The notes: generated by a model not told the origin, from the sequence alone. A DNA stretch of 64,000 nucleotides from an uncultured Candidatus Berkelbacteria bacterium (GCA_903877885.1 CAIRFN010000005.1:17956-81955), one strand, 5' to 3'. Shown: positions 24,075-64,000, numbered from the stretch's first letter. Numbers and translations are program-made.

Positions 24075-24451
24075 TGTCATTCCAGACCGGCCGGAGGCAG
24101 GATCTGGAATCCAGAATAAAATGAATAATTATTATGTGTATATTTTGACTAGCAGAAGAAACGGCACTTTATATATTGGCGTAACTAATGATCTGATTAA
24201 AAGAATATGGGAACATAAAAACCATAGTAAAAAAGGATTTACAGAAAAATATAACATTTGCCAATTGATATACTTTGAGCAAACTAATAATATAAACTCC
24301 GCTATTAATAGAGAAAAACAATTAAAATCATGGAATAGAAAATGGAAACTTGACTTAATTGAGAAAGTCAATCCTGATTGGAAAGATTTATATCAAGAAT
24401 TGTTGTAACTGGATTCCCGATGTCGGATGCCATCCGACTCGAGAATGACAA
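24075..24451 (+). mobile_element. Full-length family-A element carrying a GIY-YIG nuclease ORF between its two terminal modules
   Basis: Left module tgtcattccagaccggccggaggcaggatctggaatccag (24075-24114). ORF 24121-24408. Right module ctggattcccgatgtcggatgccatccgactcgagaatgaca (24410-24451). The short MITE copies (e.g. 38811-38904) are these two modules joined directly. Confidence 0.75.
24121..24408 (+). CDS. GIY-YIG nuclease family protein (UPF0213/YhbQ-like, about 95 aa)
   Basis: ..YYVYILTSRRNGTLYIGVTNDLIKRIWEHKN.. with the GIY...YIG motifs. The start is trimmed to the ATG at 24121. The track frame is open from 24061 through the left terminal module. Confidence 0.85.
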   Translation: MNNYYVYILTSRRNGTLYIGVTNDLIKRIWEHKNHSKKGFTEKYNICQLIYFEQTNNINSAINREKQLKSWNRKWKLDLIEKVNPDWKDLYQELL

Positions 24452-31278: not shown

Positions 31279-32241
31279 ATGCAGAAATTCCTCTTGATTG
31301 CCATGATGGCAATCACTCTGTTATCCCTCACCAACAGCGCCTTCGGTCAGAAGGTGGTTGGAACACTGGTCGTCAAAGCGACAACCAGTACGACAACAAG
31401 CGGTGTTCCTGTGCCTGACGGTGCAGTTGAACAGCCGCCAACGCCGAAAGCGCAAACAACCCCTGCGCCAGTAGTGTCCGACCGTGTCAATATCAATGAC
31501 CTTCGGGTCAAAAAATTGACAATCGACAACGTGAAAGTACATGTCGATCGTCGGTCAGGTAATGTCGTAGCGGACGGGGCAAGACCAGCAAGTCATCATG
31601 TTGCCCGTCGCCCGACCATCGGAACCAGTCCGGTCGTAGTCAAAAAAATCTCCGGATTAGAGACGACTGTCTACGGCGGCAGGAAGTCGACTGGTTTGGT
31701 CGGGAAAGTCGCAAAAATCGACACTCGGCTAACCGACGCCGAGACTAACATCTCGACATTAAATGAAAACTGCACCACAGCCCAAACAACTGCAGATGGA
31801 GCTAAAACAGCTGCAGAGGAAGCCAAAGCGATGGCAACTGGAGCTAACGAGAAAATAAATAGTTTAGCTGCCGGAATCGGGCTGACTAAGTGGGTTGCCT
31901 GGATCGCTTTGATCTTGGCGATTTGCTTGGCCTGCTTGGCTGGCTATAACTACTTCCGAAAGGAAAGAACTGGTGTGAGTAAGGACGAGCTTGACACTTT
32001 AGGGCGTCAGGTTGTTATTAACAATATCAACCTCAAGGATCAGCTTGAAGGAATCAACCGAGAGATCGCCGATCTTAAGCGAAGTATCAACACTTCGTCG
32101 GAACCCGACGCCGAACCGGAGGCAACCCCTAGGCCGCCGTTCGACTTCTCGCGTTTTCACATGCCAAAACCCGAGCCTGAACCGCTCGCCGCGACTAAGG
32201 AAGATCTTCAGGGCGCAGTCGACGACGCGGTCATAGCATAA
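31279..32241 (+). CDS. Secreted protein with signal peptide, coiled-coil region and a single C-terminal TM anchor. GC-rich island gene
   Basis: MQKFLLIAMMAITLLSLTNSAFGQ signal. TM at LTKWVAWIALILAICLACLAGY. GC clearly above the flanks. AAGGAG RBS 8 nt before the ATG. Confidence 0.5.
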   Translation: MQKFLLIAMMAITLLSLTNSAFGQKVVGTLVVKATTSTTTSGVPVPDGAVEQPPTPKAQTTPAPVVSDRVNINDLRVKKLTIDNVKVHVDRRSGNVVADGARPASHHVARRPTIGTSPVVVKKISGLETTVYGGRKSTGLVGKVAKIDTRLTDAETNISTLNENCTTAQTTADGAKTAAEEAKAMATGANEKINSLAAGIGLTKWVAWIALILAICLACLAGYNYFRKERTGVSKDELDTLGRQVVINNINLKDQLEGINREIADLKRSINTSSEPDAEPEATPRPPFDFSRFHMPKPEPEPLAATKEDLQGAVDDAVIA

Positions 32242-34448: not shown

Positions 34449-34949
34449 ATGCCAGAAAAGACTACCGGTGAGCCGGTGAAGTTCATCCCTTTGTCCATGG
34501 TTGGTTCTCTCGTCAATATGGTTGTTGAGAAAATCAAGGCATGGCTGGTCACCACCTATTTAAAATCGATCATTGATCGATTGGAAAAAGTCGAAGCGGA
34601 TTTAAACCCGCCCGACGAGTTCTTCACACAGCAATTCGATGTGATTAACGAAGGGATAAAAAAAATCATCGATGAGCGCTTGGCGAAGGTTCGTCAGGAG
34701 GTCTACGACCAACTGAAGCAAGAGCTTAGTTCGTCGCTGACGATTCTCTCCTCCGAGGAAGAAGCCAAGACGATCGAGCAGGCTCGCGCCGAGCGCGATG
34801 CTCGAAACAAAGAGTTGCGCGACATTGCTCCACCAACGCCGCCTGCGCCAACTCCAACGACTACCGTCAAACGCACAGAGCGCGTCGTCAAACCCGACAC
34901 CGCTACCCCCACCGTCAAGAAGCCGCGGCTCGCGCCACCGAGCATCTAA
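34449..34949 (+). CDS. Hypothetical coiled-coil protein with a Pro/Thr-rich C-terminus. GC-rich island
   Basis: 166 aa. AAGGAG RBS. Elevated GC. Confidence 0.45.
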   Translation: MPEKTTGEPVKFIPLSMVGSLVNMVVEKIKAWLVTTYLKSIIDRLEKVEADLNPPDEFFTQQFDVINEGIKKIIDERLAKVRQEVYDQLKQELSSSLTILSSEEEAKTIEQARAERDARNKELRDIAPPTPPAPTPTTTVKRTERVVKPDTATPTVKKPRLAPPSI

Positions 34950-34966
34950 AATCAAGGAGAAGGAAC

Positions 34967-36037
34967 ATGGGAATCGAAACCAAAGAACCCCGCCAAATCG
35001 GGGCGCTGAACATTATGCTATCAGGACTTGTCCTGGATGAGCAGAACCCTCCGAAGGATGGATGGGTCTACTACAAAATGATGGAAAATGAAACCCTGGT
35101 ATTAAATTTTGTCGACAGTCGCGAAAAAGTCCTCGAAGCGGCCGAAGCCGTATTTAACACCTCGGCAGAAATTTCCGTGGCCAAACGCGCGCACAAGGAA
35201 TTCAAAGCGCTTTTGGTTGGGTACAAAGAGGCTGTCACCGCCTTTGAAAAAGCGGTTCATAGCCCAGGCGTAGTACAAACGCAAGAGGTTATCGGTCTCG
35301 GCGGTCGTAATCGTTGGCAACGGATAATTATCTACGACCTCGAAGATGAAGAGATCGAGGGTGATATGGTCGCCTGTCGAATCTACGGTGATGCCCGGAG
35401 TTGGTTTTTTAACCCGTTCTGGTGTGTGAACCTGGATAACGGCGGCGTCTACCCGGTTTTGGCACCGATCGGTAAACAAGCGGTCATCGTCGACCGTAAC
35501 GGTAGCACCATCCGGTTCTGCTGTTACTCTCACGAAGACGGTTGGGTTGTCGAGACATTCGACAAGCGTAAGCCTGTCAAAGCGCCACCGACACTACCGA
35601 AAACGACCGAGAAACTGGCACCGCCCCCACCGCCTGACGACAAACCGGAAGCAACAGTGATATCGGAAGTCCCCATCATCTGCCCGGAATGTGAAGCCGA
35701 AATCGGCGTACCGTTCCTCGACTATCAGGAGGCAGGCACGATTAGCTGTCCGAACTGTAAAACCAGTATCGGACCATTAATCAATGGCTCCACCCTCCTG
35801 ACCGCCGACGCCGTCGGTGTCAAGGTGGGACTGAATGAACAAATGATAGTGACGCTCGGCGAACAAAACCAGCCGATCTACACCATCGCCGGATTGGCCG
35901 GTATGGGCGACAGCGATCTTCGCAAGATGCTAAAGCTCAAACGAACATCGGAAGCGGCCACGATTATCTTGGCTGCCCAGGCATTTATGCCTGACGACAA
36001 TCCCGAGGAAGATGCGGATCAGGAGGATCCGCAATAA
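34967..36037 (+). CDS. Hypothetical protein with a C-terminal zinc ribbon (CPECEAEIG...CPNCKTSIG). GC-rich island
   Basis: 356 aa. AAGGAG RBS. Elevated GC. Tandem terminators downstream. Confidence 0.5.
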   Translation: MGIETKEPRQIGALNIMLSGLVLDEQNPPKDGWVYYKMMENETLVLNFVDSREKVLEAAEAVFNTSAEISVAKRAHKEFKALLVGYKEAVTAFEKAVHSPGVVQTQEVIGLGGRNRWQRIIIYDLEDEEIEGDMVACRIYGDARSWFFNPFWCVNLDNGGVYPVLAPIGKQAVIVDRNGSTIRFCCYSHEDGWVVETFDKRKPVKAPPTLPKTTEKLAPPPPPDDKPEATVISEVPIICPECEAEIGVPFLDYQEAGTISCPNCKTSIGPLINGSTLLTADAVGVKVGLNEQMIVTLGEQNQPIYTIAGLAGMGDSDLRKMLKLKRTSEAATIILAAQAFMPDDNPEEDADQEDPQ

Positions 36038-36055
36038 CATCAAAAGGAGGAATTA

Positions 36056-36121
36056 GGCCGGCTCGAAAGAGCCGGCCTTTTCCATACTTAAAAGCCCGGC
36101 GCGTAAGCGCCGGGCTTTTTC
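36056..36121 (+). terminator. Tandem rho-independent terminators
   Basis: ggccggctc-gaaa-gagccggcc tttt, then agcccggcgc-gtaa-gcgccgggct ttttt. Confidence 0.75.
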
Positions 36122-36139
36122 GTGGCATCAAAATGCCAA

Positions 36140-36703
36140 CTAAAAATCGATAAAAAGATAGGAAGGACCGCGGGAAAAATTCCAATCCACCATTCGGCCG
36201 CCGTTTAAGGCCGGACCAAGAATCAATTGAACGAAATCGCCGCGATCGTAATGGTTGAGAAAAAACCCTCGAACCGAGAGATTTTGTTGCCGTAAGCAAC
36301 CGAGGAACTCGATATTCCTTTCAATCGAGAGCTCGCCAGACATATCGGCATTCGGCGTCAGCCACTTGAGTTGCAATTTGGTCTTCGGAACTTTGGACTC
36401 AACCGAGTCCGCCTCTTCCTGAACCTTAACCAATTCTACTAGCCAAGCATCTTGCAGCTGGCTAATAAGATGAGCAATAATCCTTCCGGGAATAATCATA
36501 TTCCGGAAGGCTTCAACAGGTTCGCCGGCGCCTTTAATCGACCTACCATGAAACTCGTGCTCATATTCGCCACCCAAAGCAGCAGAAAGAGCATTTTGCG
36601 TTTCACGGTCAGCTTCGCGCCGCGGCCAACTGATAATATCATGGCCGAGAATGTTTTCCAGCCGGATTATAGAAATCCGATCCACTGGCAAAATCATCGC
36701 CAT
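36140..36703 (-). CDS. Hypothetical protein (187 aa), GC-elevated
   Basis: Intact ORF. No family recognised. Confidence 0.45.
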   Translation of the reverse strand: MAMILPVDRISIIRLENILGHDIISWPRREADRETQNALSAALGGEYEHEFHGRSIKGAGEPVEAFRNMIIPGRIIAHLISQLQDAWLVELVKVQEEADSVESKVPKTKLQLKWLTPNADMSGELSIERNIEFLGCLRQQNLSVRGFFLNHYDRGDFVQLILGPALNGGRMVDWNFSRGPSYLFIDF

Positions 36704-36763
36704 TTCCTCCTTTTTTTATTCAATTTTCAAAGAACATTGTATTATACCTTAAAATTGTCTGAA

Positions 36764-36833
36764 TGTCAAGAGAAAGCTCTTGACAAATAGTCAACAATGT
36801 AGTATAGTTGGTTGTTATCTTCCGGAAGATAAC
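36764..36833 (+). promoter_or_regulatory. Promoter plus operator complex: a TGTCAAGA-n6-TCTTGACA palindrome overlapping the -35, TTGACA, 17-bp spacer, TATAGT, then a perfect 20-bp palindrome gttatcttccggaagataac
   Basis: tgtcaagagaaagctcttgacaaatagtcaacaatgtagtatagt... The palindrome at 36814-36833 sits at about +5 to +25. Confidence 0.55.
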
Positions 36834-36938
36834 ATTGGCAAAGAGAAAAGGAGTTTCGTAGCTAAGAAGTTCGTAAGCTACGTAGCGCATTACAGATAGT
36901 TTCTGCCTAATCAAGCCTATACACAAGGAGACGAGTCA

Positions 36939-37664
36939 ATGCAACTCGCAGATTTCGTCAAAGACACAAATCCGGAGACCTATGCTGCCTTAACAAATGA
37001 GACAACGCAGGCCGAGGGAGCGACGCAAGTGCCGAGAAGTACACAACGGCCGATGCCAATCGCTGCAAATGTCCTGGACACCAGCAACTTCATCTTTAAC
37101 ACCAAAGTGATGACCCTGATGTTCCCGTTACCGCAGTCAGCGGCAACAATCACTGTCCCGATTCGTGATCGCGGTCAAAAGGCCGGCTTCAAACTGAAGC
37201 CGATTCACGACTTAAAATTCACAATCGTCGGGTACCCGACCGGTCGGATCCTTAGCACTATTGCCAAGAAAATGTCCGACCATCAGTTTGATTCCTTTGT
37301 CTGGCAAATCGAACAGCTCATTCGCCAAACAAACTGGAATTGGCAAGTCGCCGCCGATAAGGCTGGCAATGCCCAGTATTGGGAACTTTCCCGCGCTTAC
37401 CTGGAAGAGGTCAACTCACCGGATGGTAAAGGCAAGTATACCAGAGAAAACCGCCGCGGTTCAATCATCGCCTTGATCGATCTGCCGGGGTTGGAAGGTT
37501 TCTACTGCGAGCTGGAAAAGCTCGTCAGTAAGGCCGCTAACAAATCGACCACCCTGCCACGACCTGCCACCTACATCACCCTGATGGTGAAAGGTGCTAA
37601 TCAGGACGGCATTGGCATAAGCTCTCCCGACGAATTGGAAACGTACAAAGTCAAACGATGGTAA
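36939..37664 (+). CDS. Hypothetical protein (241 aa), GC-elevated
   Basis: AAGGAG RBS. Strong terminator at 37717-37741. Confidence 0.5.
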   Translation: MQLADFVKDTNPETYAALTNETTQAEGATQVPRSTQRPMPIAANVLDTSNFIFNTKVMTLMFPLPQSAATITVPIRDRGQKAGFKLKPIHDLKFTIVGYPTGRILSTIAKKMSDHQFDSFVWQIEQLIRQTNWNWQVAADKAGNAQYWELSRAYLEEVNSPDGKGKYTRENRRGSIIALIDLPGLEGFYCELEKLVSKAANKSTTLPRPATYITLMVKGANQDGIGISSPDELETYKVKRW

Positions 37665-38921: not shown

Positions 38922-40070
38922 TTATTTATTAACTTCTTTCTTCAGTTCTTCCACTTTATCCGTTCTCTCCCAAGGTAAATCTAATTCTGGTCTACCGAAA
39001 TGGCCATAGGCGGCAATTTTTTGGTAGATTGGTTTTCGAAGATCTAAGGCTTGGATAATCATCCCTGGTCGTAAATCAAAAACTTTACTCACCGCTTGAG
39101 CGATTTTATCGTCTTCAATGGTGCCAGTACCAAACGTATCAATTCGCACCGACATTGGTTCAGCTCGACCGATGGCATAAGCAATCTGCACTTCACAGCG
39201 TTCGGCTAATTTTGCGGCAACGATATTCTTGGCCACCCATCTGGCCGCATAGCTACCCGACCGATCAACTTTACTCGGATCTTTTCCAGAGAAACAACCG
39301 CCACCGTGACGCGCATAGCCACCATAAGTATCAACAATAATTTTGCGGCCGGTCAGTCCAGTATCACCTTGCGGCCCACCAATCACAAACCGACCGGTGG
39401 TGTTGACATAGTAGTTTGTATTTTGAAGCAAGGATTTAGGGATAACTTTTTCAATTACTTTCTCGATAATTTCTTTTTTTAAGATCGATGTTTTAATATT
39501 TTCATCATGTTGTGCCGCAATTAAAACCGATTCGATGCGGACTGGTTTGTCGCCATCATATTCAACTGTAACCTGGCTTTTGCCGTCTGGTCGCAAGCCT
39601 TTGACAATCCCCTTTTTTCGAACTTCAGCCAAGCGTTGGCAAAGTTTGTGAGCCAAAACAATTGGCAAAGGCATTAATTCTTTGGTTTCGCGACAAGCAT
39701 AACCAAACATCAAACCTTGATCACCGGCGCCTAGATTTTCCAAGTCTTCGACCAAAGGACAGTCCTTTTGTTCCTTTAAGGACTGTCCTTTACTAAACGC
39801 ATCAACACCCTGTGCAATATCGGCTGATTGTTCCTTAACCGCCACCATTACACCGGAAGTTTCCCAGTGAAAACCATATTCGGCATTTGTATAGCCAATT
39901 TGTTTAATGACGTTGCGAGCGATTTTCGGAATATCGACATATGTTTTAGTGGTAATTTCTCCAGCGATAATACAAACGCCGTTGGTCAGCAATGTTTCGC
40001 AAGCGACTCGTCCTTGCGGATCGTCAGTTAAAATTGCATCGAGTACCGCATCACTAATCTGATCAGCCAT
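38922..40070 (-). CDS. metK: S-adenosylmethionine synthetase
   Basis: [35 protein letters not shown] and the rest of the canonical MetK sequence. Carries an in-frame REP-like insertion at 39765-39800 (..[17 protein letters not shown]..). Confidence 0.95.
39765..39800. repeat. REP-like palindromic element inserted in frame inside metK
   Basis: aaggacagtcctt-ttgttccttt-aaggactgtcctt. It adds about 12-16 residues relative to the conserved MetK loop before GAGDQG. Confidence 0.8.
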
Positions 40071-40292: not shown

Positions 40293-40412
40293 TCACCGCA
40301 AGCGGTGAAATATATAAAAACATCTTTCCCGCAAGGGGTCGGAGGTAGCACCTAAATTAATGGGTTGCTGGTGGATCATCGGGCCGAATCCCTCACCACA
40401 CTCTTGATATTA
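40293..40412 (-). ncRNA. SAM-I (S-box) riboswitch with an intrinsic terminator, upstream of metK
   Basis: Minus-strand read: AUCAAGAGUGUGGUGAGGGAUUCGGCCCGAUGAUCCACCAGCAACC...GGUGCUACCUCCGAC. This matches the conserved SAM-I core AGAGnGGnGGAGGGAnnGGCCCGAUGAnnCCnnGCAACC...GGUGCUA. It is followed by a terminator tcaccgcttgcggtga plus a T-run at 40280-40308. Confidence 0.8.
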
Positions 40413-40528
40413 AAATTAATTTTTAACTAAATTTATCATATTATAACCATCTAACTTTTGTCAAACTCTTGCCTGGAAACAATTTTTGCTTTAAGATGTA
40501 AATATTAAATTTATATTTTAGGAGCAAA

Positions 40529-45136: not shown

Positions 45137-45527
45137 TGTCATCCTCGAGCCGGTTTGAGCTTTGTCGAAAACCGACATCAAGGATCCATCAAAATAAAAA
45201 GCTATTTCGTTTACATTTTAGCCAGTCAGAAAAACGGAACATTATATATCGGTGTTACAAATGATATTATAAGAAGGATTTGGGAGCACAAAAATAAAGC
45301 TATTCAAGGTTTTACAGATAAATATAGAATTGATAAATTAGTTTATTTCGAAGAAACACCAGATATTAATTCAGCTATTAAGAGAGAAAAACAATTAAAA
45401 TTATGGAGCCGTTCCTGGAAAATAGATTTGATAGAAAAGAATAATCCTGATTGGAAAGATTTATATCAAGATTTGTTATAATGGATCCTTGATGTTGGAG
45501 CGCTTCGCTTCCAACTCGAGGATGACA
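45137..45527 (+). mobile_element. Second full-length family-A element carrying a GIY-YIG ORF between its terminal modules, inserted between atpA and atpG
   Basis: Left module tgtcatcctcgagccggtttgagctttgtcgaaaaccgacatcaaggatcca. ORF to 45481. Right module tggatccttgatgttggagcgcttcgcttccaactcgaggatgaca. Confidence 0.75.
45155..45481 (+). CDS. GIY-YIG nuclease family protein (second copy)
   Basis: ..YFVYILASQKNGTLYIGVTNDIIRRIWEHKN..REKQLKLWSRSWK.. The frame is open from a TTG inside the left terminal module. There is no ATG near the conserved N-terminus, so the start is uncertain. Confidence 0.75.
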   Translation: MSFVENRHQGSIKIKSYFVYILASQKNGTLYIGVTNDIIRRIWEHKNKAIQGFTDKYRIDKLVYFEETPDINSAIKREKQLKLWSRSWKIDLIEKNNPDWKDLYQDLL

Positions 45528-50646: not shown

Positions 50647-51150
50647 GTGCAATTTCAAGTACCGCAAAATATAGATCTCGAAGACAAGATTGTCGGGCCA
50701 TTGACCTTGACGCAGTTTTTGTATGTCTTAGGCGGCGGCCTTGTTGATTACATTATGTTTCAATCTTTTGCCGCTAATTATTTTGGGCTTTTTCTGGTTC
50801 TTGGTATCCCAGTCGCTTTACTTGCTTTAGGATTAGCTTTTTTTAAAGTCCAAGAACAGCCTTTGTCACATTTTATCACAGTTGGAATTTTATATTTATT
50901 TAAACCAAAAACTAGACTATGGAAAAGAGAAGAAAGCTATCCAACAGTTCTAACTGAACCAACAAAAAAAGAAAAAAAGGAAAATGAAAATGTGGCAATT
51001 CCAAAACATCATCTTGAAAAAAGTGAGCTGGAACAATTAGCCTACAAATTAGATACTTTTCAAGTAGATACGCCGGTTGAAGAAAAGAAAAAATTTGGCG
51101 CAGTTTCCGCCGCTTTCGAACAATTATTGAAGGAAGATAAAAAGAAGTAA
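50647..51150 (+). CDS. Small 2-TM protein, VirB3-like / PrgI-like component of Gram-positive-type T4SS (tentative)
   Basis: 167 aa. GTG start after GGAGGGG. Hydrophobic hairpin LYVLGGGLVDYIMF...LVLGIPVALLALGLAFF followed by a charged tail. First gene of the operon that contains VirB4. Confidence 0.45.
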   Translation: MQFQVPQNIDLEDKIVGPLTLTQFLYVLGGGLVDYIMFQSFAANYFGLFLVLGIPVALLALGLAFFKVQEQPLSHFITVGILYLFKPKTRLWKREESYPTVLTEPTKKEKKENENVAIPKHHLEKSELEQLAYKLDTFQVDTPVEEKKKFGAVSAAFEQLLKEDKKK

Positions 51151-51163
51151 CCAGGAGGGGATC

Positions 51164-51865
51164 TTGGCTCAACAAAAACCGCCACAACCAAAACCGATTG
51201 TCAGCACCCAAAGTTTTTTGGCTTTTTCTGAAGTCCACGAGGGAATTATAATTACTAAAAATGGTGAACTCCGAGCGATTTTAATGGCCAGCTCGATTAA
51301 CTTTTCCTTAAAATCCGAACAGGAACAAACGGCTATTGTTTATGCTTATCAAAATTTTCTTAACTCCCTATCTTTTCCTGTTCAAATTATGATGCAATCG
51401 CGCAAACTTGATCTAACAAAATATATTGCCAAACTTAAAGAGATTGCCAAAGTTCAGGGCAACGAATTATTGCGCGGCCAAACCATTGATTATATTTATT
51501 ACATCGAACGATTAGTTAAAGTCGCCAATATTATGGATAAAAAGTTTTATGTTGTTATTCCTTTTATGCCGCCTTCCACGACCCAAATTAAACCTTCTGC
51601 TGGTTTATTTGGTAATAAAAAAGAAGCTAGCGGCCCTAAAATTACACCGAAGGATTTTGAAAAATATCAAACCGAAATTTTACAGAGACTTCAAGTAATT
51701 CAATCTGGTTTAGGTTCAATTGGAGTCCGTACAGCGCAACTTAATACCCAACAAATTGTCGAGTTGATGTACGGTATTTATAACCCAGAAGAAGCGGAAA
51801 AAGAAAAATTAATCAATTTTAATCATCTAAATTCTGATTTAGTCGAAAGCGAAGTCGAAAAATGA
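51164..51865 (+). CDS. VirB4/TraC-family N-terminal domain encoded as a separate ORF
   Basis: ..FSEVHEGIIITKNGELRAILMASSINFSLKSEQEQTAIVYAYQNFLNSLSFPVQIMMQSRKLDL.. matches the N-terminal domain of conjugative VirB4-type ATPases. Its stop overlaps the next ATG (ATGA). Confidence 0.6.
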   Translation: MAQQKPPQPKPIVSTQSFLAFSEVHEGIIITKNGELRAILMASSINFSLKSEQEQTAIVYAYQNFLNSLSFPVQIMMQSRKLDLTKYIAKLKEIAKVQGNELLRGQTIDYIYYIERLVKVANIMDKKFYVVIPFMPPSTTQIKPSAGLFGNKKEASGPKITPKDFEKYQTEILQRLQVIQSGLGSIGVRTAQLNTQQIVELMYGIYNPEEAEKEKLINFNHLNSDLVESEVEK

Positions 51866-53685
51866 ATAATCAAAATCAACCACAATCAATACCAACGCCA
51901 ACACAAAATAAATTACCTGCCGGTGTTTCTCAAGGTATGAACTCGGTTTTTGATCTAATTGCCCCGCCGTCATTTGAGGCTAAACCAAATTATCTAAAAA
52001 TCGGTGGCATTTTTACTCGAACTCTGTTTGTATTCACTTATCCTCGCTTTGTCCAAACCAACTGGTTAAGTCCGATTATCAACTACGATATTACAATGGA
52101 TATTTCCATGTTTATTCACCCAATCGGATCTAAAGAAACCATGGATACTCTCAAGAAAAAAGCAGCTCAACTCGAATCGAGCGAACAAATTGATGCGGAA
52201 AAGGGCATGGTTCGCGATCCGGAACGCCAAACTGCTATTTCCGATATTGAAAATTTACGCGATACTTTGCAGCGCGGCGAAATGAAATTATTCCAATACG
52301 CGCTTTATTTTACCATTTACGCTCAAAGCGAGGATGAATTAAACACTATTACCGAGCAATTAGAGTCAACCTTGGGTGGCATGTTGATTTATACCAAACA
52401 AGCGCTATTGCAAATGGAACAAGGTTTTAATTCCACTATTCCGCTTTTTCTTGATCAGCTAAATATTCTTCGCAATCTGGACACTGCTTCGCTTTCCACC
52501 ACTTTTCCATTTACTTCTTCAACATTAAGTTCGAATGATGGTATTCTCTACGGCATTAATCGCCATAACAATTCTTTGATTTTGTTTGACCGATTCAAAT
52601 TAGAAAATGCTAATTCTGTTGTTTTTGCTAAATCCGGTTCCGGTAAATCGTATACAATTAAACTGGAAGCTCTTCGATCATTGATGCTCGGTACCGATAT
52701 TATTGTGATCGACCCGGAAAATGAATATAAAGCCTTGTGCGAAGCGGTTGGTGGTAATTACTTGAATATTTCCATCAACTCCGATAAACGAATTAACCCG
52801 TTTGATTTGCCGGTGGCTGGTGTGGGTTTACAAAACGATGCCACTGGTGAAGATATTTTAAGAAGTAATATTACAACTTTACAGGGTTTGATTTCTTTAA
52901 TGCTTGGCGAAATGACTCAAGATGAAGACGCGATTTTGGAAAAGGCTTTATATGCCACTTACGCCTTGCGCGATATCACCGCCGACCCTAATACTCAAAG
53001 AAATAAGCCACCGGTTCTAGCCGATCTTCAATCAATTTTGGCTGACACAACCGGCGCTGATAGTATGGTCAAACGTTTAGAGCGATACACTAATGGTACA
53101 TTTCGAGGTTTATTTGATCAACCAACCAACTTTGATTTAGGCGGCGGCATGACTGTTTTTAGTGTCAGAGATTTGGAAGACGCGCTTCGGCCGATTGGCA
53201 TGTATATGGCTCTGAACTATATTTGGCAAAGAGTTCGTTTTAATGTCAAAAAACGAATTATGATTATTGATGAAGCCTGGTGGATGATGCAATACGAAGA
53301 TTCTGGTAAATTTCTTTATGCTTTAGCTAAACGCGGTCGTAAATATTTCCTTGGTTTAACCATTATTTCTCAAGATGTAGAAGATTTCATTGGTAGTAAA
53401 TATGGCCGTGCCGTGGTCAACAACTCTTCAATGCAAATTTTAATGAAGCAAAACCCGGCATCAGTCGATAAAATTGCTTCGATTTTCGGTTTAACTGAAG
53501 GTGAAAAGTTTATGTTACTTGAATGCGAAGTTGGTGAAGGTTTATTCTTTGCCGGACTCAATCATGTGGCTATCAAAGTCGTTGCCAGTTATTCTGAAGA
53601 CCAATTAATCACCACTAACCCGCAAGAAATTCTCGAACAACAAGCAAAAGCTAAAGAAGAAAAAGCTGCGGCCGAAACAAATTAA
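51862..53685 (+). CDS. VirB4-family conjugal transfer / type IV secretion ATPase (ATPase domain)
   Basis: Walker A VVFAKSGSGKSYT, Walker B MIIDEAWWMM and a TrbE/CagE-like C-terminal region. Confidence 0.8.
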   Translation: MNNQNQPQSIPTPTQNKLPAGVSQGMNSVFDLIAPPSFEAKPNYLKIGGIFTRTLFVFTYPRFVQTNWLSPIINYDITMDISMFIHPIGSKETMDTLKKKAAQLESSEQIDAEKGMVRDPERQTAISDIENLRDTLQRGEMKLFQYALYFTIYAQSEDELNTITEQLESTLGGMLIYTKQALLQMEQGFNSTIPLFLDQLNILRNLDTASLSTTFPFTSSTLSSNDGILYGINRHNNSLILFDRFKLENANSVVFAKSGSGKSYTIKLEALRSLMLGTDIIVIDPENEYKALCEAVGGNYLNISINSDKRINPFDLPVAGVGLQNDATGEDILRSNITTLQGLISLMLGEMTQDEDAILEKALYATYALRDITADPNTQRNKPPVLADLQSILADTTGADSMVKRLERYTNGTFRGLFDQPTNFDLGGGMTVFSVRDLEDALRPIGMYMALNYIWQRVRFNVKKRIMIIDEAWWMMQYEDSGKFLYALAKRGRKYFLGLTIISQDVEDFIGSKYGRAVVNNSSMQILMKQNPASVDKIASIFGLTEGEKFMLLECEVGEGLFFAGLNHVAIKVVASYSEDQLITTNPQEILEQQAKAKEEKAAAETN

Positions 53686-53687
53686 TT

Positions 53688-54941
53688 TTGTTTATTATGA
53701 TCAACCAAACGGTAAATAAACTAAAAGCCCTTAAGAATCGTAAAGGCGCGATTGGGATTATTATTGCTATTTGTATAGTAATTTTTCTTTTGATTCTCTT
53801 AATCGCTTTTGCCGCCGCTATAATTGGTAGTCACCAGGGCGCAAATTCTACCGGCGGATTAATCACTGGTACTGATACCGGAGGTTGCACTGGTGGGAAA
53901 TTACCACAAAGCGTTTTAGATCTTATTAATCAAAACAAACCGGTTTATCAGGCCGCAGCCAAAGCCGAAGGAATTGATTGGGAAATGTTGGCTGCGGTTC
54001 ATTATCGCGAAGCGACCAATAACCCCAACGGATCGTTGATGAGTGGTGAAAAAATTGGAACAGTAAATCCGGATAATGGTAAAACTTACAATACTTTATA
54101 CGATAGCGCAGTCGCCGCCGCTCAATCTTTAAAATCCCGTGTTAATGGTCTAAGAGTTGGTTCAGATAGTGACACAATTAAAAAGGCTTTTTTGGGACAT
54201 AATCGAGGTGACAGATATACAAAAGGTGGATGTAGTCTTGATTCTTCACCATATGTTATGAATCAATTTGATGCTGCCCATACAAATATGGCTTATCCAT
54301 CAAATCTAATTTGCGAACCAAAAAGTACTGCCGGAAGAACCGAAACAAAACTTGGCGCTTTCACTGTTTACTCAATCTTAAAAGGCAATATTGCTGGTAG
54401 TGCTACTTGCACCCAAACGAGCGGACCAGCCGCCACAGGTAGTTGCGCTGATATTTTGCCAGCCGCGGAAAAATATTTCGGACTAAATTATTCACAAGCT
54501 AGTCACTGTGGCCCAAATACAATCGGACCAGCTGGTGTAACTGCTGTTGATTGTTCTGGTTATGTTTCCAGGGTTTATCGTGATATTGGTATCGCATCAA
54601 AAAACTGGTGTACAAGAACCGCAACTATACCTAACGATTCCACTTTAGTCTTAATTACAAACGATCTTTCTAGGGCACCACAATTAGCTCAACAGGGCGA
54701 TTTAATCTTAACCGGAAGTCACGTCGTTATCTATGTTAACAATAATACTGTTTATGCTTCTCGCGGCGAAACAGCCGGTGGCCCACAAAAGGAGACTGTT
54801 AGAAGTGGTGTTTGGAATGTCAAAAACCTCGCAGCCACTCATGGTTGGGTCGGACTTTATCGGGCCAAGGCCTGCACACTCCAACAACCAGCCGCCTTAA
54901 TTCAATCGGCTGTAAATAATGCCTTAAAGGTGAAAAAATGA
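53688..54941 (+). CDS. Membrane-anchored cell-wall hydrolase with a C-terminal NlpC/P60 (Cys-His) peptidase domain, possibly a VirB1-functional analogue
   Basis: N-terminal TM. C-terminal DCSGYVSRVY (catalytic Cys) ... GDLILTGSHVVIYV (His). Confidence 0.6.
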   Translation: MFIMINQTVNKLKALKNRKGAIGIIIAICIVIFLLILLIAFAAAIIGSHQGANSTGGLITGTDTGGCTGGKLPQSVLDLINQNKPVYQAAAKAEGIDWEMLAAVHYREATNNPNGSLMSGEKIGTVNPDNGKTYNTLYDSAVAAAQSLKSRVNGLRVGSDSDTIKKAFLGHNRGDRYTKGGCSLDSSPYVMNQFDAAHTNMAYPSNLICEPKSTAGRTETKLGAFTVYSILKGNIAGSATCTQTSGPAATGSCADILPAAEKYFGLNYSQASHCGPNTIGPAGVTAVDCSGYVSRVYRDIGIASKNWCTRTATIPNDSTLVLITNDLSRAPQLAQQGDLILTGSHVVIYVNNNTVYASRGETAGGPQKETVRSGVWNVKNLAATHGWVGLYRAKACTLQQPAALIQSAVNNALKVKK

Positions 54942-57696: not shown

Positions 57697-60600
57697 ATGG
57701 CCGACGATAATATTAAATTTACCACTAAAACCAACCAAACCTTTGATGTTGAGGTTGAAAAAACCAAAAGTTCGACCGAAAAAACTGAATTAGGTACTAC
57801 TACTTCGACTGCTGGATCAGAAAATAATAGTGGAAAAGCTTCACCAAGTCAAACTGGATCGACTGAACAATCCTCTAAACCCGGTTCTACCCAATCCCAA
57901 CCACAAAATAATAATCAACCAGAAAATCAGCAAAATCAACAAGATCAGCAAAACCAAAAAAACAAAGAAGAAAAAGAAAAAGCTGATCAAAAAGATAAGG
58001 ATAAAGAAAAAGAAAAAGCCGAAAAAGAAGGCCAAGAACCAAAAGAAAAACCAGCCGAAGGTGAGAAACCTGGCGAACCAGGTCAACCAGCCGAAGGTAC
58101 TCCGGGCGAAGGTATCGGCAATGAACCAGCTGGTGTACCTGAAGGCGGATTACCAGAAGGAGCTGGCCCAGTTGGAACAGAAGCGGGGACAACCGGTTTA
58201 GGTGGTGAAGCGGCAGTCGGTGGCGAAGGCGCAGCCGCGGCTGGTGCTGAAGGAGCAGCCGTAGCCGAAGGTGCCGCTGTCGCCGAGGGAGCAGCAGTTA
58301 CTGAAGGCGTGGCTGTAGCCGAGGGAGCCGCGGTGGCTGCTGGCGCTACTGCCGGTGCGCCGGTTTTATTAATCGTTTTAGGAGTTTTAGTAGTTATTGT
58401 ATTGATTCTTTTGGTAATTTTTGGCGTCATGGCTTGCCAAGCCGATCAAGGCGAATTTGGCAAAGGAACCAAACAAGAAGCCGGACCAAATTATACCAAT
58501 ACCAAAACAGTCTTAGCTAGCGCCGGAACACCAGCTAAAAGCGCTCAAGGCAACACTGTTAGCGGTCAAAATAAAATTAATCTTAATGCCACTGATCAAA
58601 AATATATTGCTGCCGGTAGCACCGACAAACGGTTGATGGATGCCTTGCACTATGTTGACCAAAAACATCTAAGTCTTGGTGTTAGTCACGTTATTTCTGG
58701 CTATAACGGCTCGGCGAAAGTTAGTTACAATTCTAATACCTTGGCTTCCGAAATTGATGCCAAATATAGTCTATTTCATCCGGTAGGCATTAGCTATGCC
58801 GCGCTAGATTATTCAAACATTCCTGATTTAACCGAATCTGGCGCCTTGGACAATTCTCAAGTGACAGCCAATGTTTCGGCCCACCAAGAAGGTTTGGCAA
58901 TTGATATTTCTACGATTGATTTTGTCTATCACGACCACGAATATGATCCGCTCTGCCCAGATGGTTTTCCACCGTTTGACAAGGTTTGGTATAGCGACGG
59001 TAGTTCGGATTCTAGTGGTATTTTGGGTAGCTTAATTAATCCCGAGGGTTTAAAAGCTAATTTAGATAGTTTGACTTCGCAAATCACGAATTTAACTGCA
59101 TCTTTAAACGATTCAACTATTACCAAAATTTTAAATCAAGCTAATCCCGATCAAGCCAGCAATCTATTGAAAATCGTTCAAAATGCCAGTAAAAATAGTA
59201 ATGGCGATTTGGCTAGTATTAATAATATTTTCCAACAAAACAACGACTCTGTTAATGCTCTGCAAGCCCAAGTTGCTAAATACGCTGGCGCCATTAACGC
59301 CAGTTCTCAAGACCAAGCGACAAAAGATAAAGAAACTAACGCTCTAATTAAAATTCAAGCAATGGTTGAGTCTAATACTAGCCAATGGAGCCAAATCGGC
59401 AATGTGACTGGCATCCATACTGGTAGCATCCAACGAGATATTGATGATCTTAGTGATTTAGCTAATGGTCAATTCGACCCAAATCGCACTAATGATTTGA
59501 TTAACCACTTAACGAGCGATTTTAACAGTATTACCAATTTTAAGGGCATCAGTGGCTTAGGCCAAGCCAGCCAGTTGACTCAAAGTTTTGGTGATATTAC
59601 CAAATATCTAACCAACGGTAATAGTTCCGATGTTAATGCTATGGCCGATACTTTTAATAAATTTATTTCTGATCCTGGTATCAGTTCTGGTGGTCTTGGT
59701 TCAAGTTCTAAAAATTTCAACACAGTATTAAATGATTTGAGTAAAAATCCGAGTTTAAAAAGTTTAGCTAATTTGGATATTGCAAAGTTGGGAAACCTTG
59801 GTGATTTTGGTAAATTAACTAATCTGGCCAATTTGGATAATTTATCCAATCTCACTAAAATCGGCGGTTTAGGTAGTTTAAGTAGTTTGCCTGGTTTAAG
59901 CAATTTAAGTAATATTCCAGGTGTTAGTGGATTAATTAGTGGTCTAAGTGGGCTTTTGGGCGGCAATGAATTATTACGCATTCCCTGCTCCAGCTACAGC
60001 CCAGTACCAGATTCGAGTAACCAGTTGCCATCGATTCCCGGGTTAAGTCAAGCTCTTGGAACAGTTACTAATAGTTTAAACCAATTGAATAATGTGATGA
60101 ATACTTCAGTTATAGACGCCTTAAATAAAATTGATCCAACATTAACAAAACAACTTCAAAACTCGATTTCTCAAATAACTGGCATTGCCCCAGGTCAACA
60201 AGCGACCGATATCAATGCTATCACCAGCCAAAAACTGGCTTCTAACCTCTCGACTGTTAAAGATTTATTTAATAAAAATTCCGATACGGTTAATTTATTA
60301 CAAAAACAAGTCAGCCAAATTGCGTCGGCAATTAATCATTCCTCTCAAGATCAGAATACTAAAAATCAAGAAACTCAGGCTTTAGTTAAACTTCAAGCCA
60401 TGGTTGAAACTAATTCTAACCAATGGAATCAATTTATGTCTGATTCTGTTAACCAAAGAGGAATGATCGATCAAGACCTTAGTTTCATCAATTATGTCAC
60501 CGGCCAAAACTCGAATAAAGTCGATGCCAATACGGTTAAAGGTGTACTTGATCGAGCAATCAACGATATTCAAGCGACAAATTTTAATCAAAACAATAGT

Positions 60601-61437
60601 CAGGTTGCTCAAGCCAGAGATTTAAATACTGCCTTTAACGATATTACTAATCAGTTAAAAACAATTTTACCAACAAACGGTTCGACTAGTTTTAGCGCAA
60701 GCCAAGCCAATCAAATTGCTGATACATTTCAGAATTTCTTAAAATCAGATTCTAATCCAGCCACCGGCACTAAAAACTTCTCTAGCATCATGAATACTTT
60801 AAGTAAAAATCCTGATTTGAAAGCTTTAGCCAACTTGGATGTCAGTAAACTTGGTGATCTGGGAGATTTTGGCAATCTTAGTAAATTGGCAAATGTTGGC
60901 AATTTAAGCAGTCTCACAAATATTGGCGGCTTAGGCAGCCTTGGTAGTTTAACTGGTTTTTCTAAAATTGCTTCTAGCCTGGGTAATATTCCCGGATTAG
61001 GCAGTCTCTTTGGCGGTCTGACCGGCGGTACCAATACGACCTGGAACGGTTTGCCAGCCGTCGCTATTCCGATTCAAGTGGGTTGGCAAGATCGAAAACC
61101 ATCAGTCGGCTGGATCACTGGCGATTCCAGTAATTTGATTACCAATGCTATTACTAATGCTTTGGTTAATTATTTCGTTTATCAACCGGAAGCGCGTCGC
61201 AAAACCCATCAACTGGTTGGTGAATTATTACAATTTCCATATGATATGGTAGCAGCAAGTGGTAAATCTAGCGATAAATATAATTATCGCTTAAGCCAGA
61301 TTATTACTTACTCTGATGAACGCGATGTCAAACCATTTTGGGATAAATTAACCGATCTCTATGGTTTACCTCGCACATCAAATCTTGGTCTTTTTGCCAT
61401 GCCAGAAGCTTGGGATCATGTTCACATCGGATACTAA
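57697..61437 (+). CDS. Giant surface protein (1246 aa) with three regions: an acidic/low-complexity N-terminus with a Gly/Ala/Val/Glu repeat, a single TM, and two ~350-aa tandem repeat units
   Basis: RBS taggaggggaacATG. TM helix PVLLIVLGVLVVIVLILLVIFGVMA. Repeat units around aa 490-800 and 820-1110, e.g. ..NTVLNDLSKNPSLKSLANLDIAKLGNLGDFGKL.. vs ..SIMNTLSKNPDLKALANLDVSKLGDLGDFGNL.. Confidence 0.6.
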   Translation: MADDNIKFTTKTNQTFDVEVEKTKSSTEKTELGTTTSTAGSENNSGKASPSQTGSTEQSSKPGSTQSQPQNNNQPENQQNQQDQQNQKNKEEKEKADQKDKDKEKEKAEKEGQEPKEKPAEGEKPGEPGQPAEGTPGEGIGNEPAGVPEGGLPEGAGPVGTEAGTTGLGGEAAVGGEGAAAAGAEGAAVAEGAAVAEGAAVTEGVAVAEGAAVAAGATAGAPVLLIVLGVLVVIVLILLVIFGVMACQADQGEFGKGTKQEAGPNYTNTKTVLASAGTPAKSAQGNTVSGQNKINLNATDQKYIAAGSTDKRLMDALHYVDQKHLSLGVSHVISGYNGSAKVSYNSNTLASEIDAKYSLFHPVGISYAALDYSNIPDLTESGALDNSQVTANVSAHQEGLAIDISTIDFVYHDHEYDPLCPDGFPPFDKVWYSDGSSDSSGILGSLINPEGLKANLDSLTSQITNLTASLNDSTITKILNQANPDQASNLLKIVQNASKNSNGDLASINNIFQQNNDSVNALQAQVAKYAGAINASSQDQATKDKETNALIKIQAMVESNTSQWSQIGNVTGIHTGSIQRDIDDLSDLANGQFDPNRTNDLINHLTSDFNSITNFKGISGLGQASQLTQSFGDITKYLTNGNSSDVNAMADTFNKFISDPGISSGGLGSSSKNFNTVLNDLSKNPSLKSLANLDIAKLGNLGDFGKLTNLANLDNLSNLTKIGGLGSLSSLPGLSNLSNIPGVSGLISGLSGLLGGNELLRIPCSSYSPVPDSSNQLPSIPGLSQALGTVTNSLNQLNNVMNTSVIDALNKIDPTLTKQLQNSISQITGIAPGQQATDINAITSQKLASNLSTVKDLFNKNSDTVNLLQKQVSQIASAINHSSQDQNTKNQETQALVKLQAMVETNSNQWNQFMSDSVNQRGMIDQDLSFINYVTGQNSNKVDANTVKGVLDRAINDIQATNFNQNNSQVAQARDLNTAFNDITNQLKTILPTNGSTSFSASQANQIADTFQNFLKSDSNPATGTKNFSSIMNTLSKNPDLKALANLDVSKLGDLGDFGNLSKLANVGNLSSLTNIGGLGSLGSLTGFSKIASSLGNIPGLGSLFGGLTGGTNTTWNGLPAVAIPIQVGWQDRKPSVGWITGDSSNLITNAITNALVNYFVYQPEARRKTHQLVGELLQFPYDMVAASGKSSDKYNYRLSQIITYSDERDVKPFWDKLTDLYGLPRTSNLGLFAMPEAWDHVHIGY

Positions 61438-61877: not shown

Positions 61878-62447
61878 TTAAAATATCTGCGGCAAATGCA
61901 TAAAGCTGGCAAAGATGTTCGGCAAAAACGAAACGAAATATAAAAATAACGAAATAAAAACACCGTAGAGCAAAACCCGAATTGACCAATTAAGGTAAAA
62001 CTTGCGCGGCACATTGGAATATTTGGTTAAATTATAGGTCTCTAAAATATAGGCATCATAAATTTTGTTCTCATTAGCCAAGGTATCCAAAACCTGTTTT
62101 TGATATTCGTCTTCGGATTTACCGCTGATTTGATGATGGTAAAACAGACTTTCACTCTGACCTTTTTTGGTCGCAAAATGACTTGGTTTCAAAGCCATTA
62201 AAGCAAAAAACATAGAAATAACTACAGATATTAAAGCAGCAATAAAAAATACGCTTTGAGCCCATTGGGCTTCAAAATTTGTGGCAAAAAAGACAATCAA
62301 AGCCGAGTTAAAACCAATCATAATATTGGTTCTTAAGTCCAACATATTGCGAATTTCAATCTGTTTATTTAAAATATCAGACACAAAAGTCACCCGCTCC
62401 AGAGCGCCCAATTCCCCATCCCATTTAATTTCTTCTTTAGTTTGCAT
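61878..62447 (-). CDS. Membrane protein (3 TM) with a cytoplasmic N-terminal domain. Function unknown
   Basis: Start trimmed to the ATG at 62447 after GGAGGGG. The track uses the GTG at 62462. Preceded by conserved leader copy B. Confidence 0.5.
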   Translation of the reverse strand: MQTKEEIKWDGELGALERVTFVSDILNKQIEIRNMLDLRTNIMIGFNSALIVFFATNFEAQWAQSVFFIAALISVVISMFFALMALKPSHFATKKGQSESLFYHHQISGKSEDEYQKQVLDTLANENKIYDAYILETYNLTKYSNVPRKFYLNWSIRVLLYGVFISLFLYFVSFLPNIFASFMHLPQIF

Positions 62448-62558
62448 CTTCCCCTCCGACACACATTAATTTAAAAATATGATAGTTTGTCGCCCTCCGA
62501 TACTCGCACTGTTCGTACACTACGAAGTAGGTTGAACAGTAAGAGTTTAGGATGGGCA
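62448..62558 (-). promoter_or_regulatory. Conserved ~115-nt 5' leader element, copy B
   Basis: The reverse complement aligns with 50402-50516 over gcccatcct...ttactgtNcaaccNactNcgtNgtgtacgNacagtgc...cggagggcgaca..ctatcatattttt..gtgtcggagggg. Confidence 0.5.
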
Positions 62559-62628
62559 AACAATAAAACACTTATTATATATTTATCATATCACAAACAT
62601 TTATCAAAACGTATTAGTTAAATTACTT

Positions 62629-62641
62629 AAGGACAGTCCTT
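62629..62641. repeat. REP-like single arm (aaggacagtcctt)
   Basis: A self-complementary 13-mer followed by tttt. Confidence 0.55.
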
Positions 62642-62656
62642 TTAGTTTCATAGATT

Positions 62657-63088
62657 TTAAATATCTTTCCCTTGCTGCCAAAGTAAATTAAAATAGTTCA
62701 AATATGTTTTAGCCAGAACTGGATTTTTAATTTCAATCACCGAAACTGGTTCATCGAAAATTTGCATCGCAATATAATCCTCAATCACCAACATGTTTGC
62801 CGGCGTTTCTAAATTAGTAGGAATAACTCGCACTTCGTAAAGTTCGTTGTTGTCTGATTTTCTCTTATCAACTTCGGAAACATGGTACTCAACCATTTTC
62901 ATCACAATATTTTTCTTTTTGCGAATCCGATCATAGCGATGTTGCTTACTTCCCATCAACTCATACCAGCGATCACCAATGACACCCAAGACATAAATCG
63001 TACTACCCTCTTTCATCCGACTGATATAATTCAAACTAAAATTTTGAAAACCTTCCAAACCTTCGTAAATCACGATCTCTTGTTTCAC
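62657..63088 (-). CDS. Hypothetical protein
   Basis: The ORF is open to 63148, but the first 20 codons lie in the foreign GC-rich fragment. Probable GTG start at 63088 (VKQEIVIYEG..). Confidence 0.35.
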   Translation of the reverse strand: MKQEIVIYEGLEGFQNFSLNYISRMKEGSTIYVLGVIGDRWYELMGSKQHRYDRIRKKKNIVMKMVEYHVSEVDKRKSDNNELYEVRVIPTNLETPANMLVIEDYIAMQIFDEPVSVIEIKNPVLAKTYLNYFNLLWQQGKDI

Positions 63089-63536
63089 TGCCGACCTGCA
63101 GACCGGGACGGTCTGCACCGAGGTAAATTTAGAAAAAAACCTCGGCAACCGTTTCGGCCTTTGGGCCTATGCGGCCCAGTCGGAGAATTGGGGCGAGGTT
63201 TACGCCGGCCCAAGTTACGCGCCAGCAAAAAATTTTCAAGTCGGCATCGCCGCCGGCACCGAATCCAACCAGCCCCGCGTCCGCTTCGGCGGCTTCGCGT
63301 GGATCGGAATGGGCCGTTTCTCTCTCATCGCATTAGGCGAGGACGGCGGATCGGGAACCTGGTGGAAGCTAGAGGGTAAATATACCCTCGATGCCAAAAC
63401 CAATATTGGCGTCATGGAAGACGCCAACAAAAAAACCAGTCTTCTTATCGAGCGCAAGCTCGACAATAGCTTAACGCTCCGCGGCCGTTTTTACGGCAAC
63501 GGAGCAGGCGATTTGGGATTAAAAATCGCCTTCTAG
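63069..63536 (+). pseudogene. GC-rich fragment encoding the C-terminal part of an outer-membrane beta-barrel-like protein (no start codon until Met63309). Likely a foreign gene remnant
   Basis: Frame open from 63069: ..NRFGLWAYAAQSENWGEVYAGPSYAPAKNFQVGIAAGTESNQPRVRFGGFAWIGMGRFSLIALGEDGGSGTWWKLEGKYTLDAKTNIGVMEDANKKTSLLIERKLDNSLTLRGRFYGNGAGDLGLKIAF*. The C-terminus shows the alternating-hydrophobic pattern ending in Phe. GC is very much higher than the flanks. Confidence 0.4.
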
Positions 63537-63544
63537 AAAATTAA

Positions 63545-63572
63545 CCCCGCATAGAAATGTGCGGGGTTTTTC
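63545..63572 (+). terminator. Rho-independent terminator of the GC-rich fragment
   Basis: ccccgcat-agaa-atgtgcgggg followed by ttttt. Confidence 0.7.
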
Positions 63573-63613
63573 GTATTCAAAAATTATATTTGCATGATTT
63601 AATCAAGAAGCTA

Positions 63614-63644
63614 TTGACATGTTCGCTATTTGTTCGTGTATAAT
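63614..63644 (+). promoter_or_regulatory. Promoter: TTGACA, 17-bp spacer, TGTATAAT
   Basis: ctattgacatgttcgctatttgttcgtgtataat. It drives the RhuM-family gene. Confidence 0.5.
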
Positions 63645-63670
63645 ATAATTATATAAAGAAAAGAGATCTC

Positions 63671-64000
63671 ATGGACAAACAAAAAAGTCGGGGTCAAATC
63701 ATCATCTACCAAACGCCGGAGGGCGAAAACAAAATCGAAGTTAAAATGGAGGAGGAAACCATCTGGTTGACACAAGAGCAAATGTCAACATTATTCAATA
63801 AAGATAGAAGAACCATTACTGAACATATCGGAAATATTTTTAAGGAGAACGAGCTTAGTAAAATTTCAGTATGCCGGAAATTCCAGCATACTGCCGCTGA
63901 TGGTAAAAAGTACAAAGTCAATTTCTACAATCTCGATGTAATTATCTCTGTTGGATATCGTGTTAAATCAATCCAAGGAACTCAATTTCGCATCTGGGCT
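63671..64000 (+). CDS. RhuM-family virulence-associated protein, 5' part (truncated by the window end)
   Basis: MDKQKSRGQIIIYQTPEGENKIEVKMEEETIWLTQEQMSTLFNKDRRTITEHIGNIFKENELSKISVCRKFQHTAADGKKYKVNFYNLDVIISVGYRVKSIQGTQFRIWA matches the conserved RhuM N-terminal domain. Confidence 0.7.
   Translation, partial: MDKQKSRGQIIIYQTPEGENKIEVKMEEETIWLTQEQMSTLFNKDRRTITEHIGNIFKENELSKISVCRKFQHTAADGKKYKVNFYNLDVIISVGYRVKSIQGTQFRIWA

Follow-up and report, generated by a model that had tools for sequence, protein, structure and literature searches.

The DNA analysed here, hereafter the window, is a stretch of 64,000 nucleotides from an uncultured Candidatus Berkelbacteria bacterium. All named relatives of its PNPase among the 120 listed, to 62% identity, come from Candidatus Berkelbacteria or the Patescibacteria group, and the names of the relatives of its TrmB-family regulator are likewise Berkelbacteria or Patescibacteria. 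Close to the 3′ end of the window two gene remnants are found back to back (Table 1), namely a TrmB-family regulator gene on the minus strand and, on the plus strand, a GC-rich gene whose intact relatives are predicted to code for an outer membrane protein (OMP)-type β-barrel. The neighbors of the pair are a gene for a PycTM-like (Pycsar effector) membrane protein at 61878-62462 (-) and a RhuM gene at 63671-64000 (+), the latter being a RhuM-Fic gene (330 aa) in contig L014, which continues the window.

Table 1 Features of the TrmB/barrel locus and of the type IV secretion system (T4SS) cluster; coordinates are those of the window.
Feature	Coordinates	Strand	Remarks
TrmB-family regulator gene, 3′ remnant	62657..63095	-	Residues ~97-241 of a 241-aa protein
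Spurious 5′ extension of the minus-strand ORF	63096..63148	-	MPRFFSKFTSVQTVPVCRS.., antisense of the barrel fragment, no TrmB sequence
Probable deletion junction	63091..63095		CCGAC microhomology common to the TrmB gene (+ strand reading) and the barrel gene
5′-truncated pseudogene of a predicted 12-stranded OMP-type β-barrel	63087..63536	+	Equals P0001 residues ~29-176
75-aa ORF with ATG start, P0023	63309..63536	+	Annotated by gene callers within the barrel fragment
Intrinsic terminator of the barrel gene	63543..63568	+	11-bp stem, 4-nt loop, T-rich tail
Candidate TrmB palindrome site for P0003/P0005			TTTGTCATCACAAAGTATTGACAAA
PrgI-family protein	50647-51150		T4SS cluster
VirB4/TraG-type ATPase	51862-53685		T4SS cluster
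NlpC/P60 cell-wall hydrolase	53688-54941		T4SS cluster

The GC content calculated per 200 nt rises from 0.39 (62900-63099) to 0.60 (63100-63299) and is 0.34 after 63500, which bears out the compositional jump described in the initial annotation, although not its exact position of about 63088, since both composition and homology break at 63091-63096. The 450-nt fragment has a GC content of 0.558, i.e. about 56% in a 40% GC genome, a value reached by just 0.27% of the 450-nt windows in the 64 kb (mean 0.401, sd 0.054), and its GC3 is 0.66 vs a mean of 0.37 (sd 0.10) for the 58 other ORFs. Other GC-rich islands are located at 31279-32241 and 34449-37664 (GC 0.48-0.53, GC3 up to 0.63) and encode proteins without a Pfam match, that of 31279-32241 having a signal peptide and a C-terminal TM segment, so the barrel fragment is not the sole compositional outlier. 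The region 16871-17470 has a GC content of at least 0.54 and ORFs that overlap one another on the two strands, and may represent either a small GC-rich gene or an RNA not described so far; the Rfam search of the surrounding island (16.6-17.7 kb) gave nothing at E ≤ 1 except a chance-level match.

The plus-strand frame of the fragment is open from 63069 to the TAG at 63534-63536, and its earliest ATG, GTG or TTG codon is at 63309, in agreement with the initial annotation, which had noted the lack of a start codon over the first 240 nt and called the sequence a 3′ gene fragment. It begins at the equivalent of residue 29 of the full-length relative P0001 and thus has no start codon, no signal peptide and almost nothing of strand 1; according to the AF2 strand map, it keeps the last two residues of strand 1, followed by strands 2-12. 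The 5′ leader and the promoter are missing as well, and no promoter-like site was found on the plus strand from 62483 to 63767. The frame is unbroken over 148 codons with zero internal stops and ends in ..RGRFYGNGAGDLGLKIAF (..GDLGLKIAF) directly before the stop codon, which is the same C-terminal Phe end as claimed earlier. The terminator predicted to follow the frame is also present, its stem being followed by TTTCGTATTC, and in the L002 orthologue a similar hairpin is located 3′ of the gene, followed by TTTTTCGTATT. The annotated 75-aa ORF lacks a signal peptide and includes no more than roughly the final six strands. In a scan of the window with the family HMM, the barrel frame was matched at E = 1.4e-59, and no paralogues besides the fragment were found.

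Elsewhere in the window there is a SAM-I riboswitch at 40317-40413 (-), scoring 57.6 bits, above the gathering score, upstream of the ORF 38922-40070 (-). The motif ..Y(V/I)YIL.S..NGTLYIGVTND.. is common to two small AT-rich ORFs, 24061-24408 and 45155-45481, which look like GIY-YIG-type nuclease paralogues; the latter breaks up the row of ATP synthase genes. The tRNA/tmRNA scan of the window for integration sites found none.

TrmB-family regulators (PF01978) are abundant in CPR. The minus-strand ORF 62657-63148 is a genuine TrmB gene as far as about 63095, where the homology ends, and then reads through into the antisense of the GC-rich fragment, so that its extension into the fragment is only apparent, as the initial annotation had supposed. 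With the C-terminal 141 aa of P0003 (241 aa, PF01978) the remnant shares 99% identity, and with P0004-P0006 74-79%. Compared with the intact allele in contig L003, it shows 99.6% nucleotide identity over 504 nt, with one mismatch in about 430 nt (~99.8%) within the TrmB remnant itself. Its start codon and N-terminal winged-helix DNA-binding domain are deleted: the full-length relatives P0003-P0016 carry the N-terminal TrmB domain, but no PF01978 or other TrmB Pfam match was found in the remnant at 62657-63095, which retains only the C-terminal, effector-side domain. In other respects the relatives conform to the TrmB family, being 241-aa proteins with an N-terminal winged helix, encoded divergently from their presumed target, with a palindromic operator overlapping the -35 box.

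The window equals the reverse complement of L003, which harbors the intact TrmB gene for P0003, through position 63095 (…CACTGCCGAC) and differs from position 63096 on, beyond which L003 runs on in TrmB codons and the window in barrel-gene sequence; the matching place in the L001 barrel gene reads ..ATACCGACATCCAGACCGG. BLAST aligns the window with L003 as far as 63099, position 63096 being mismatched, and the shared CCGAC has an imperfect extension, CCGACnTGC, to 63099. Exactly the same 111-nt junction, with flanks 100% identical, is present in five contigs (L014-L018) obtained from separate assemblies of five read sets, and the 75-aa ORF is found on 12 contigs in all, one of them 445 kb long.

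In relatives the two genes are intact. A divergent pair consisting of a gene for a 241-aa TrmB regulator and a gene for a secreted barrel of 170-188 aa was found in L001, L005, L006/L007, L008/L009, L012/L024, L020, L021, L022 and L023, i.e. in at least nine Berkelbacteria-type lineages. The spacing between the genes is 159-287 bp or more, and in L008/L009 there are two small ORFs between them. The L005 contig has the PycTM-DciA genes and the giant-protein gene in common with the region of the window, and both the contig encoding P0001 and L014 continue to recF-dnaN, which makes the locus orthologous and places it within a few kb of the genes at the replication origin. In L014 the row recF-dnaN-dnaA-rpmH-rnpA-yidC is just 4-9 kb beyond the scar, which, together with the PycTM and RhuM flanks, makes the locus a variable accessory patch beside the origin region.

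The promoter/operator of the relatives, TTTGTCATC-NN-AAAG-NN-TTGACAAA followed after 17-18 nt by TGnTATAAT, is conserved in nine lineages and absent throughout the window even with three mismatches tolerated; the search of the window for the operator and intercistronic motifs of the relatives was negative too. Between the divergent genes there is an inverted repeat, TTTGTCA-N11-TGACAAA, which overlaps the -35 box of the barrel gene, the layout expected for a TrmB dimer controlling both its own gene and the target. Judging from this arrangement, in the intact system TrmB would bind the TTTGTCA-N11-TGACAAA palindrome and control an operon coding for the Sec-exported barrel and usually, after it, a SAM-dependent methyltransferase. 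The barrel transcript of the relatives has a long leader, with repeated hairpin modules before each cistron. The operator/promoter and the leader, which begins with GTCACGATGAGAAAG, are located at L001 174-378, L005 5079-5365, L008 4974-6000, L012 2353-2900 and L004 320-560, and the intercistronic module consists of a hairpin, the sequence CAA(C/T)CTCGAG…AGAG(T/C)(G/A)TTGAA and a stem GAGGTGC…GACCTC abutting the Shine-Dalgarno sequence. In L004 the same promoter and leader precede an unrelated 101-aa gene, suggesting a cassette-like operon.

A word-indexed search of 5.8 billion proteins returned only two relatives of the fragment, P0001 (176 aa, ~60-61% identity) and P0002 (188 aa, 59% identity), both of which are full-length proteins that start with a signal peptide (..LAMVANA/NEV..) and end like the fragment. 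An exhaustive profile search extended the family to 425 cluster representatives (E ≤ 1e-3), of which 165 also pass a cutoff of 1e-10; almost all representatives are 165-200 aa long. No family was assigned to the fragment or to the 24 aligned members in the Pfam and NCBIfam scan, in which a single member out of the 24 matched PF13505 (OMP_b-brl), weakly (E = 0.058), and the profile search against the PDB sequences gave chance matches only. The scan of GTDB genomes with a narrow peptide pattern found just two loci, both in CPR-type MAGs. No relatives were detected in phage and plasmid collections (tblastn) or in IMG/VR, so nothing points to a phage or plasmid as the vehicle. The literature on β-barrels, BamA and porins in Patescibacteria and Berkelbacteria was searched, and no description of such a family was found.

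In spite of the absence of an assigned family, the sequences have the features of an exported β-barrel. Among 139 members, 134 possess an N-terminal hydrophobic run, whereas in the window copy the Sec signal peptide present in intact homologues was lost by deletion. Dyad alternation was found in 10 of the 12 strands (strand 7 shows none, strand 8 a weak one), the mean KD being roughly +0.7 to +3 on one face of the strands and roughly 0 to -1.6 on the opposite one; the polar face consists of Gly, Ser and Ala with conserved lumen charges E86, R93, E112 and K121. The C-terminus is F in 97 of the 139 members, with a conserved G171-x-x-hydrophobic-x-F pattern. The consensus of the β-signal is polar-x-G-x-x-hydrophobic-x-hydrophobic/aromatic, which is fitted by the C-terminal motif of the family, D-x-G-x-x-I-x-F, and the window copy ends accordingly in ..DLGLKIAF.

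The AF2 model of P0001, built from a 24-sequence alignment, has a pLDDT of 91.8, and in it the signal helix is followed by 12 β-strands. In the PDB, Foldseek matched transmembrane barrels only, KdgM and NanC being the best (PDB 4pr7, 4fqe, 2wjq; E 7e-7 to 9e-6, TM ~0.55-0.6), followed by a designed transmembrane barrel (TMB), the β-domains of intimin/invasin and OMPLA, and in the BFVD library of viral structures almost only OMPs are seen among the significant and near-significant matches. The prediction that the intact protein is a closed 12-strand antiparallel amphipathic OMP-type barrel is thus well supported, and the initial annotation was right in recognizing an OMP-like β-barrel C-terminus. 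The family resembles KdgM/NanC in its 12 antiparallel strands, monomeric state, size (~150-205 mature residues), Sec signal peptide, polar charged lumen and C-terminal aromatic residue. It differs from them in having no KdgM profile match, with an identity of 10-18% in the structural alignments, in its shorter strands and loops, and in that the studied copies are found in CPR genomes, thought to be without an outer membrane, and paired with a TrmB regulator. With the BAM-inserted OMPs (PF13505, OmpX/OmpW/OMPLA, intimin/invasin) it shares the amphipathic strands with dyad repeat and the aromatic strand ends, but not the sequence profile, PF13505 being matched only as described above. Due to the hydrophobic outer face, the charged lumen and the BAM-type C-terminal signal, the intact barrel most likely inserts into a membrane and acts as a porin-like channel.

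When eight barrel orthologues are aligned by codon, identity is highest at position 2 (0.77), followed by positions 1 (0.66) and 3 (0.45); dN/dS is 0.2-0.3, and dS is above 1 and often saturated, from which it follows that this is a protein-coding gene under purifying selection and not an RNA. The pairwise identities of the barrels rank like those of the TrmB proteins, which suggests that the two genes co-diverged. In fifteen CPR-type loci, mostly TrmB-linked, the GC content of the barrel gene exceeds that of the remaining contig by 8-16.5 points and its GC3 is 0.53-0.73, and the GC content of the co-transcribed methyltransferase gene is moderately raised. Thus high GC is a trait of the CPR copies and no sign of recent arrival. 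Expression-linked codon bias was considered as the cause of the high GC3 but is not supported, because the ATP synthase, S20 and PNPase genes of the window have a GC3 of just 0.37-0.43. In L013, a MAG labelled as Saccharibacteria, a barrel homologue at 4989-5525 is located inside a 3.6 kb GC-rich stretch (3000-6600) with no convincing ORFs and an odd 81-nt tmRNA match at 4561-4641, where ARAGORN finds no tmRNA.

An approximate NJ tree of 147 members, midpoint-rooted and without support values, places all TrmB-linked copies in one 42-tip clade, and the copies from diderm contigs outside of it. Two such distant members, at L030 5992-6546 and L032 5547-6098, come from marine contigs of FCB-type diderm bacteria, where genes for multihaem cytochromes and T9SS-CTD glycosidases lie beside them; these homologues are 7-14 GC points below their contigs. 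An ancient transfer of the barrel family from diderm bacteria to CPR is possible. As synonymous sites are saturated between the CPR orthologues, the base composition of a gene from a single old transfer should have ameliorated.

The initial annotation proposed that the fragment is either a horizontal-transfer remnant or an assembly chimera. In the former case, a recent acquisition from a GC-rich Gram-negative donor with an insertion boundary at about 63090, the GC content of 0.56 and GC3 of 0.66 in a 0.40 GC genome could be explained, members of the family do exist on diderm FCB-type contigs, and the single clade of CPR copies would fit one acquisition, albeit an old one. However, the barrel gene stands divergent from TrmB at the same place in all the Berkelbacteria-type lineages listed above and diverges together with it, the copies remain GC-rich despite the saturation at synonymous sites, the known diderm copies are AT-rich relative to their contigs, and the far side of the junction is truncated too, which is not expected from an insertion. 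Since the two sides of the junction are neighbors in relatives and the barrel co-diverges with TrmB, the break is an internal deletion rather than an insertion boundary. Recent transfer is refuted by this synteny, the co-divergence and the truncation on both sides, and we regard it as very unlikely; to speak of a foreign fragment abutting native genes is misleading, as the barrel and TrmB genes are a native divergent pair. A chimera, or contamination fusing a CPR contig with a fragment of another organism, would account for a composition shifting within a few bases and for two ORFs broken at one point, but the identical 111-nt junction in five contigs from five read sets and different pipelines, the 12 contigs with the 75-aa ORF, the natural adjacency of the two sides in relatives and the mere 5 bp shared at the join, too little to mislead a k-mer assembler, make it extremely improbable.

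Two more readings concern the function of the sequence. GC-rich islands of AT-rich genomes are often RNA genes, and several long ORFs overlap here on both strands, so that the stretch might be a structured non-coding RNA with the open frame as a by-product of high GC; against this stand the codon-position identities and dN/dS of the eight orthologues, the signal peptide with the confident protein model, and the Rfam search, which at the gathering threshold gives no match at the fragment and, for the L001/L002 orthologues at E ≤ 1, only a sub-threshold sR55 snoRNA match (20 bits vs gathering 35, E 0.11), taken as chance. The coding signature refutes the RNA reading, to which we give next to no probability. 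It might also be suggested that the truncated barrel gene is still expressed with a new function, for example as the 75-aa ORF from the ATG at 63309, considering that the 148-codon frame is intact, the terminator is kept and gene callers annotate the 75-aa protein. This is highly improbable, as the native promoter and leader are deleted, no promoter-like site is present upstream on the plus strand, and the product would have neither a signal peptide nor half of the strands and so could not close a barrel. That the frame is still intact is accounted for by how recent the deletion is, given that the TrmB remnant and the intact allele are ~99.8% identical.

The region is thus very probably the scar of a recent deletion in a Berkelbacteria (CPR/Patescibacteria) chromosome. 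In the ancestral state the TrmB gene (-) and the gene for a secreted 12-stranded barrel (+) would have been arranged back to back around a common promoter/operator, and one deletion of ~0.55-0.65 kb between the two CCGAC microhomology copies would have taken 287 nt coding for TrmB residues 1-96, including the DNA-binding domain, the entire intergenic control region (~160-290 nt with the leader) and ~84 nt of the barrel gene, coding for almost the whole of strand 1 and the signal peptide before it. The size of the deleted barrel and leader part is extrapolated from orthologues because no near-identical intact barrel allele of the same lineage was found, the best match being 61% identical. The barrel gene is truncated compared to its orthologues and its neighbor is cut at the same point; both remnants lack a promoter and a start codon and are therefore pseudogenes. 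With about one base in 430 changed in the TrmB remnant and no internal stop in the barrel frame, the deletion is young. Two adjacent genes cut at one junction with 5 bp of microhomology are typical of pseudogenes formed by microhomology-mediated illegitimate recombination, and the remnants, otherwise unmutated and with an intact allele in a ~99.6% identical population, resemble the deletion pseudogenes of reduced bacterial genomes. The scar itself is ordinary genome decay with nothing unusual compared to known deletion pseudogenes, but it corrects a tempting misreading, as GC-rich here does not mean foreign or chimeric.

The barrel family raises a different question. CPR bacteria are held to be monoderm, without an outer membrane (PMC6744442, PMC11665869), and a monoderm-type T4SS such as that encoded in the window has been described for Patescibacteria (PMC12102498). 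The T4SS cluster of the window occupies positions 50647-54941 and is flanked by unannotated membrane or secreted proteins, for example a 1246-aa low-complexity protein at 57697-61437. No Omp85-type gene was found among the ORFs scanned in the 64-kb window. With CPR held to be without an outer membrane and with a monoderm-type T4SS, there is no obvious home for an OMP-type barrel, and it is surprising that one is conserved intact in Berkelbacteria. The barrel might be destined for the outer membrane of a host, or else for an outer layer of the CPR cell that has gone unrecognised. The full proposal, namely that Berkelbacteria and some other CPR keep a monophyletic group of TrmB-controlled, purifying-selected, genuine transmembrane 12-strand porin-like barrels despite being thought monoderm, is a tentative one, and we consider it rather unlikely to hold in its entirety.

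The TrmB-linked, GC-anomalous 12-strand barrel family of the supposedly monoderm CPR is undescribed and deserves follow-up: it combines an OMP fold and hundreds of metagenomic relatives with the absence of a Pfam or NCBIfam family, and one of its clades is fixed beside a TrmB regulator in CPR. The barrel gene is also a clean case of anomalous base composition kept through long vertical descent. If the proposal is true, such CPR would have an unrecognised outer lipid layer or would secrete the barrel into the outer membrane of a Gram-negative host, where it would open a nutrient channel at the contact between the episymbiont and the host. In that case a special constraint on expression or at the RNA level would be reflected in the GC3 excess that the operon shows across the lineage, and the deletion in the population represented by the window would show that the barrel system is dispensable under some conditions. 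For the study of CPR envelopes and of the interaction with hosts, a conserved OMP-type channel would be a concrete, clonable candidate for the membrane interface.
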